Source of the DNA: an uncultured Candidatus Saccharibacteria bacterium
Lineage (GTDB): Bacteria > Patescibacteriota > Minisyncoccia > UBA6257 > JACOXY01
Direction: 5' to 3'
NCBI GenBank assembly: GCA_964357615.1
Contig: CAYHMC010000001.1
Location: 2,602 to 66,601 of the forward strand
DNA length: 64,000 bases
Part shown: positions 31,986 to 32,225 of the stretch, piece by piece
Position numbering within the stretch: position 1 is the first letter of the stretch
Layout: each line of letters begins with the position of its first letter
The notes under the pieces: generated by a model
The model's input: only the letters and a program-made list of their open reading frames with translations
Told to the model about the DNA's origin: nothing
The model's database searches: none
Position numbers and translations under genes: made by a program

Positions 31986-32094
31986 CATCCCGAACGAAGC
32001 AGATCGCGATCTCTCGCTATCCACTAAAATTAATTATTTCAATAAACGACTTTGTATTGTTTTTCATCATATATTTATAAAATGCGATCGCGGC

Positions 32095-32119
32095 TTCGTA
32101 CGGGATCATCCCGTACGAA
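32095..32119. promoter_or_regulatory. Perfect 12-1-12 palindrome (TTCGTACGGGAT-c-ATCCCGTACGAA) inside the atpG-atpD intergenic gap; a candidate operator or RNA hairpin
   Basis: It is flanked by related copies: tcatcccgaacgaa at 31986-31999 and tacgggatca at ~32218-32230. It is also flanked by the palindromes agatcgcgatct (32002-32013) and gcgatcgc (32083-32090). Confidence 0.5.
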
Positions 32120-32225
32120 ATAGGACGCGAACATTTTTTATTATCTACATTGTTTACTAATTATTATTAAGCTTTTATTAATCATTGTCATTATCATATA
32201 TGCGTGTCCGCTATTTCATACGGGA

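Follow-up and report, generated by a model that had tools for sequence, protein, structure and literature searches.

The long spacer between atpG and atpD in the window (the whole 64-kb stretch of DNA that was analyzed) most likely consists of two mobile-element insertions from one CPR inverted-repeat family, a reading to which we assign a probability of roughly 0.8. The mechanism by which these elements move and the mechanism by which they affect expression are much less certain.

Results

Two inverted-repeat units fill the atpG-atpD junction

Both genes lie on the minus strand. The atpG ORF (F1 gamma, PF00231) occupies 32226..33155 and ends with a TGA at 32228-32226, and the atpD ORF (F1 beta) occupies 30624..31988, with a start codon that is colinear with the AtpD N-termini of relatives and follows a rule seen throughout the element family. 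The original prediction described a 240-bp gap and a canonical atpD start at 31985. The long spacer and the canonical start both hold, but the ATG is actually at 31988-31986, and the true non-coding spacer is 31989-32225, or 237 nt. The figure of 240 nt corresponds to a first unit (119 nt), a G and a second unit (120 nt), a stretch whose first A is common to the atpG TGA and whose last AT is common to the atpD ATG. The gap had also been called GC-rich; it measures 31-35% GC, the same as its flanks. An identical gap sequence is present in two independent assemblies of Hainich groundwater samples (ERZ1292624 and ERZ1292625), so the gap is not an assembly artefact. An ERR3858121 contig (L003) with an identical atpG ends 84 nt past the atpG stop codon, at a position inside unit 1, as might be expected if the repeat interrupts assembly. 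A mechanical ORF list places the atpD start within unit 2, at a GTG (32024) that precedes the true ATG by 36 nt, and so adds 12 spurious residues.

Unit 1, found by repeat search, is a 119-nt non-coding inverted-repeat element at 32108..32226 on the minus strand (subfamily 'GCGGAC...GCGTCC', hairpin z = -4.0). Its left arm (32226..32201) and right arm (32133..32108) enclose an AT-rich interior, and its first A is the final base of the atpG stop codon. The single minus-strand G at 32107, a 1-nt target duplication or spacer between the units, forms an internal ATG with the last AT of unit 1. Unit 2 is a 120-nt non-coding inverted-repeat element at 31987..32106 on the same strand (subfamily 'GCCGCGATCGC...GCGATCTGC', hairpin z = -4.5), again with an AT-rich interior between a left arm at 32106..32084 and a right arm at 32011..31987. 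The atpD start codon is made of the AT at the end of this unit and the flanking G. The complementary arms measure 23-26 nt in each unit. One end of each carries the conserved terminus ATCCCGTAYGAA..., which the opposite end repeats as its reverse complement.

The repeats that the original prediction had noted in the gap fit this arrangement. The perfect 12+1+12 palindrome at 32095-32119 is present: its 25 bp straddle the boundary between the units, with the G in the middle, the right end of unit 1 before it and the left end of unit 2 after it. Extra copies of the 12-mer were found at 31987-31998 and 32215-32226, each with one mismatch, and the inner palindromes agatcgcgatct and gcgatcgc are likewise there, as inner parts of the unit 2 arms. 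The four motif copies are the ends of two adjacent inverted-repeat units of about 120 nt and are not scattered. Allowing up to two mismatches, the 12-mer matches the window 7 times, compared to a mean of 2.1 in shuffled sequence (0 of 100 shuffles reach 7), and all four good matches fall within the gap. Identity between the two units is 68%. Unit 1 matches copies in other genomes at 78% along its entire length, and unit 2 reaches 78% with a copy in another contig (L069). They therefore represent two separate insertions from two subfamilies and not a local duplication.

Relatives preserve the empty site

Comparing the junction in relatives, a check that accompanied the original prediction, revealed what it looks like without the units. 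In the three closest AtpG relatives (L004, L005 and L008; 70-73% identical), atpG and atpD overlap by exactly the 4 nt ATGA, and a Niyogibacteria relative has a 1-nt gap at this position. The L008 junction, AACACATGATAGAAGG, is colinear with the reconstructed window site: removing both units, each with one G, leaves AACACATGAATACAGG, a standard ATGA stop/start overlap, and one G is thus duplicated per unit. An ATG at 32229-32227 that overlaps the atpG stop TGA is the relic of the ancestral overlap. Short non-coding units (119 and 120 nt) with terminal inverted repeats, a target-site duplication and an empty site in relatives have the makeup of MITEs. We propose that the ancestral ATGA overlap between the two genes received two independent insertions of non-autonomous MITE-like copies in head-to-tail orientation. 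Each insertion would have duplicated the start-codon G, so that atpD kept an ATG composed of the element's last AT and that G.

The element family is widespread in CPR bacteria

We searched one-genome-per-species bacterial and archaeal contigs for the terminus pattern ATCCCGNAYGAA-N80-110-TTCRTNCGGGAT. The pattern matches at least 118 genomic stretches, compared to about 4 expected by chance, an estimate that assumes equal base frequencies. Nearly all of the matches listed are from CPR/Patescibacteria, including Nomura-, Yanofsky-, Zambryski-, Komeili- and Doudnabacteria, Paceibacterota and Saccharibacteria-labelled bins, with a handful bearing other labels. The 122 copies among the matches listed are 104-133 nt long (mode 116-123), and the flanking sequence contains size variants of 64-280 nt with the same termini. 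Other CPR genomes carry three to seven or more copies each. The proposal that the 12-mer be traced beyond the gap gave a divided answer, as it belongs to a repeat family dispersed across CPR genomes but occurs in the 64-kb window only at atp; elsewhere in the window there is neither another element copy nor a GIY-YIG gene.

Viral contigs gave 0 matches to the terminus pattern, and the 865 kb of flanking sequence hold no transposase-sized element with these termini. None of the Rfam 15 covariance models reached its gathering score anywhere in the window, and the gap gave only noise (E ≥ 0.18). We conclude that the family is very large, is confined almost entirely to CPR/Patescibacteria and comprises several subfamilies. 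It is apparently undescribed: the full-text literature outside subscription journals, searched with the terminus 12-mers included, holds no description of a start-codon-specific, inverted-repeat-bounded GIY-YIG element.

Several other sequences resemble the family. Hairpins of 32-52 nt with the termini NCCCCGTACGAA...TTCGTACGGGGN (L118:4524-4555, L122:2824-2855, L057:4973-5024 and 7825-7876) may be minimal remnants or a related mini-family. Copies or look-alikes also turned up in bins labelled Acidobacteriaceae, Planctomycetia, Gammaproteobacteria and Nanoarchaeota (L109:178-304 and 2822-2990; L027; L106; L077). The Acidobacteriaceae-labelled copy is on an 807-kb contig, away from a gene start, and the host gene in L077 shares its N-terminus with that of L116, a bin labelled Saccharibacteria. 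Chance matches, mis-binning or horizontal transfer could account for the copies or look-alikes in non-CPR bins.

Copies sit on start codons

The position of the elements follows a simple rule. In 113 of the 122 copies listed, the element's terminal ATG, which consists of its last AT and the next G, opens an ORF of at least 60 aa (median 217), and the element has the same orientation as the gene. The usual arrangement is ATGR-element-GRA, and a 2-nt duplication is found in 82 of the 113 copies listed; the 1-nt form of the window, ATG-element-G, accounts for 5 and a 3-nt form for 6. The duplication thus varies from 1 to 3 nt, and one fixed stagger cannot account for the 1-nt type of the window or for the 1-nt spacers of tandem copies. 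We rejected a junction parse with no duplication, as in IS200/IS605, which would shift the host frame; codon periodicity and the ORFs fit the duplication parse. The exceptions to the start rule do not sit in RNA genes, as only unrelated tRNAs lie nearby.

Dozens of different genes serve as insertion sites. From their N-terminal sequences, read without a profile library, we take the downstream genes to be common housekeeping genes, among them topA (topoisomerase I), ssb, rplL (L7/L12), rpsH (S8) and fusA (EF-G), as well as rpoA, rpoC, secY, smc and the genes for L2, L9, L13, L21, RF2 and RecR. In two genomes (L045:6153-6274 and L054:3864-3981), the copies at ssb share both their insertion site and the rare duplication ATGT-..-GT, reflecting either an old inherited insertion or repeated use of the site.

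Sequence preference and purifying loss do not explain this distribution. The same 865 kb contain 4768 unoccupied ATGRA sites, made up of 246 ORF starts, 408 intergenic sites and 4114 intragenic sites. Random insertion at ATGRA followed by loss of intragenic insertions predicts that about 38% of copies would be at starts, and 93% are observed there. An ATGRA preference combined with loss of intragenic insertions therefore does not account for the start-codon bias. The excess could result from true targeting or from better survival at sites where both flanks are essential.

Among targets that keep an ATG, GTG or TTG on the element's left side, about 40% (29 of 76) have a -10-like hexamer 5-9 nt upstream of the original start. 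TATAAT-like hexamers in the left flanks (L009-L126) peak at this same distance from the original ATG. Upstream Shine-Dalgarno (SD)-like motifs are uncommon (25 of the 113 copies listed). Judging by these flanks, targets with a -10-like hexamer just upstream are probably leaderless genes, which suggests that many CPR genes are transcribed as leaderless mRNAs. The element's own 3' end has an SD sequence in only 5 of the 113 copies listed. We found no conserved uORF or leader peptide in the elements; uORF lengths range from 4 to 42 aa and the frames are evenly spread.

Longer elements with the same termini encode a GIY-YIG nuclease

Elements of 276-284 bp share their termini and target with the short units. 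Their single ORF, which fills the element, encodes a GIY-YIG nuclease of 85-88 aa, and no other ORF fits within 280 bp. One such partner ORF, located outside the window, matches PF01541 with E = 1.2e-14 and 54.7 bits against a cutoff of 22.6, which places it in the GIY-YIG superfamily. The invariant residues of the nuclease are Y3, Y5, Y16, G18, R24, R26, H30, E50, R61 and E62. In a profile search against solved structures, its nearest relatives were UPF0213 proteins (E = 4e-11), followed by the structure-specific nuclease Slx1 (E = 9e-4), and I-TevI was distant (E = 0.05). With these termini and this target, the coding element is a candidate autonomous partner of the MITE-like units, and its GIY-YIG protein a putative transposase. 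Nuclease elements also recur elsewhere in tandem with one or more short elements, a single base apart, which is the geometry of the window.

To sample the coding elements independently of their ends, metagenome contigs were searched with the nuclease protein alone. At least 542 loci encode a relative, and we examined the best 80. In 65 of these 80 loci, the ORF lies between termini with at least 12 of 14 positions complementary, and the 65 bounded elements have total lengths of 276-284 bp, apart from one of 296. Left flanks read ATGA in 33 of the loci and right flanks GAA in 38; an ATG is the terminal codon in 51, and a host ORF comes next in 48. Intact ORFs, 85-88 aa in length, are present in 58 of the 65 bounded elements. 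The nuclease ORF starts 18-23 nt inside the element or, in 8 of 65, in frame with the host ATG. In 53 of 65, two duplicated target bases complete its stop codon (TGA in 46, TAA in 7), which consequently overlaps the host ATG.

The protein database contains at least 7970 clusters of relatives (about 8000) at E ≤ 1e-5, and the named organisms among them are CPR lineages. Where these proteins carry a name at all, current annotation gives a generic one, "GIY-YIG nuclease family protein" or "excinuclease ABC subunit C". A recurrent 95-aa length class in the database may be the form read in frame from the host ATG. We also noted a small GIY-YIG ORF at L104:6950-7350, 36% identical to the element nuclease, just upstream of a tRNA gene and preceded by tRNA-like 5' sequence and a GC-rich hairpin. 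The locus resembles a tRNA gene that another kind of GIY-YIG insertion has interrupted or duplicated.

Both strands fold, and the element ends change together

The original prediction anticipated a stable fold for the minus-strand transcript, and the gap does fold into a pair of adjacent hairpins (-70 kcal/mol, z = -5.2; none of 200 shuffles folded as well). Single units fold with z about -4 to -4.5, and their antisense strands fold equally well, with no significant difference in folding energy between sense and antisense (p = 0.2). Given the lack of a strand-specific RNA signal, base-pairing could matter at the DNA level only. The atpD AUG sits at the base of hairpin 2, without an SD sequence, and two uORFs extend into the left arms, one of 11 aa (32229-32194) and one of 30 aa (32109-32017). 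A promoter scan returned 3 promoter-like matches compared to 2.4 expected, which is chance level. The region 31800-32400 has no terminator-like sites, and thus nothing that qualifies as an intrinsic terminator or attenuator.

The elements found through their protein define the terminal helix more sharply. It has exactly 14 complementary positions, 96.8% of them paired, a percentage inflated by pre-selecting loci at 12 or more of 14 paired positions; this selection does not inflate the number of double changes. Such double changes occur in 10 of the 14 terminal pairs, and 0 of 500 shuffles reach the observed score. When the register is slid, terminal pairing falls to 44% or less. The right terminus encodes the C-terminus of the nuclease (FRTG or SLTG) and changes together with the left terminus. 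This co-variation is explained equally well by both ends binding one protein or by the ends pairing as a DNA or RNA hairpin.

Discussion

A two-insertion origin for the atpG-atpD spacer is favored by the empty site in relatives, the family-wide duplication, the hundreds of related copies in other genomes and the coding partner with the same termini, and a miniature inverted-repeat insertion was among the roles originally suggested for the gap. A tandem duplication or assembly artefact, which the similar lengths and ends of the units might suggest, has a negligible chance of being correct, as two independent assemblies agree and each unit is closer to copies elsewhere (78%) than to its neighbor (68%). 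It is very improbable that the 25-bp palindrome is a dimeric transcription-factor operator for an internal atpDC promoter. Its perfect 12+1+12 symmetry and the promoter-like hexamers in the AT-rich interiors speak for an operator, but those hexamers occur at chance level and each unit repeats the half-site at its far end, about 110 nt to either side. The 25-bp stretch, which the original prediction judged to be of operator size, is the junction of two element ends, and its geometry is identical wherever two elements abut in arrays at unrelated genes.

Stable hairpins on the transcript also invite the explanation that the units are RNA elements selected by the host, either RNase III sites or mRNA stabilizers, that regulate or process atpDC versus atpBEFHAG, and that their resemblance to mobile elements is secondary. 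CPR bacteria do retain rnc, the RNase III gene (PMC12641178), and short unexplained insertions in CPR rRNA genes have been treated alongside insertions that RNase III cleaves (PMC11270868). Against this, the three closest relatives use the ATGA overlap with no hairpins at all, the folding lacks strand asymmetry, no Rfam family matches, and the units come from different subfamilies and resemble independent insertions. The same element is also found at many unrelated genes, and we consider host selection improbable. The narrower suggestion of an atp-specific riboregulator is not supported either, as start codons of other genes, among them topA, ssb and ribosomal-protein genes, carry the element too. 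A further possibility concerns only how the elements move: another transposase, of the DDE or RAYT/HUH type and so far unseen, might mobilize them, leaving the GIY-YIG ORF as cargo or a homing-type hitchhiker. GIY-YIG proteins are not an established transposase class and are not known to act as cut-and-paste transposases, the short elements require only their termini, and the nuclease ORF could be a passenger. On the other hand, that ORF spans the element from terminus to terminus and leaves no room for another in 280 bp, its C-terminus is encoded by the right terminus, which co-changes with the left, and these termini bound 65 of the best 80 protein-found loci (of at least 542). With no transposase-sized element bearing these termini in the 865 kb of flanks, we regard a second enzyme as unlikely.

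We return to two insertions of a single family and outline how its members might move. The nuclease would mobilize both the coding elements and their short derivatives. Short staggered cuts at ATG^R-type junctions would yield a 2-nt duplication, a fixed orientation and possibly precise excision, and variable end repair could generate the forms with 1-nt and 3-nt duplications. More tentatively, and with the odds somewhat against us, we suggest a new class of prokaryotic transposon that has an 86-aa nuclease of the Slx1/UPF0213 type as its sole mobility protein and lives specifically on start codons. The nuclease of such a transposon would cut element-flank junctions and ATGRA targets, or the hairpin or cruciform base of the 14-bp termini, and the element would move by cut-and-rejoin with a 1-2-nt duplication.

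A coding element would borrow the host gene's transcription and translation start, taking over its promoter and initiation site. Ribosomes would return to the host gene by way of the ATGA stop/start overlap, a step for which the short derivatives might substitute melting of their hairpin or processing of the RNA. At atp, the two units would be co-transcribed and fold into hairpins of about 120 nt that hide the atpD AUG. Ribosomes finishing atpG would reach the foot of hairpin 1, and translation of the uORFs could open the stems so that the next AUG becomes accessible. Cleavage of the stems by RNase III is another way in which atpD might come to be expressed. Differential expression or processing of atpDC, as the original prediction envisaged, could thus be a consequence of the insertion.

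The short units resemble bacterial MITEs that fold as hairpins in transcripts, such as the Correia/NEMIS elements of Neisseria, RUP, ERIC and the Rickettsia palindromic elements (RPE). These are also non-coding and about 100-150 bp long, with terminal inverted repeats and a short target duplication. They occur in many copies, are co-transcribed with their neighbors and form long hairpins. Correia hairpins are cut by RNase III. Unlike Correia, RUP, ERIC and RPE elements, the CPR element has different termini, duplicates 1-2 nt (GR within ATGRA, not TA) and sits exactly on start codons, not between genes or in frame within them. Its distribution is almost wholly CPR, and its partner is a GIY-YIG nuclease in place of a DDE transposase. 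REP/REPIN sequences, which depend on RAYT, are similar as dispersed, hairpin-forming doublets of about 100 nt tied to one dedicated small enzyme. That enzyme is of the Y1-HUH type, and REPINs are extragenic with no start-codon rule; we set aside a REP/REPIN-RAYT identity, as the only ORF bounded by the CPR termini is GIY-YIG.

Genes for GIY-YIG homing endonucleases (I-TevI, T4 Seg) provide a different parallel as selfish elements whose sole gene is a GIY-YIG nuclease. Enzymes of the I-TevI type leave 2-nt 3' overhangs, which would fit the 2-nt duplication. In contrast to I-TevI and T4 Seg, the element nuclease is an 86-aa catalytic domain without a DNA-binding domain and is closest to UPF0213 and Slx1, and the element has inverted-repeat termini and a target duplication and occupies many genes instead of one homing site. 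An I-TevI-type homing endonuclease gene was accordingly rejected, given a protein of 85-88 aa in total and sites in dozens of genes. Rfam searches of the window and the gap detected no intron fold. One paper notes that the insertions in CPR rRNA genes that encode GIY-YIG proteins look like neither class of intron (PMC11270868). Those insertions may be related to the start-codon elements. Mitochondrial 'byp' elements and the bypassing of phage T4 gene 60 are alike in being short hairpin-forming mobile inserts tolerated in expressed genes. They have matching take-off and landing codons, the counterpart of which here would be the AUGR before and the AUGR after the element. The CPR elements differ in being 120-280 nt long and located at the start codon, not within the ORF, and translational bypassing of them is speculative.

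The insertion of two units explains an odd 240-bp break in the normally tightly coupled atp operon and fixes the start of atpD. It also exposes a very abundant element family in CPR bacteria, with relatives in at least 542 metagenomic loci and about 8000 protein clusters. Gene callers may mis-start the genes that carry these elements. Because many of the target genes look leaderless, the family also bears on translation initiation in CPR bacteria. Finally, it offers a testable case of a mobile element tolerated within the starts of essential genes in minimal genomes, and may represent a nuclease-only mechanism of transposition.
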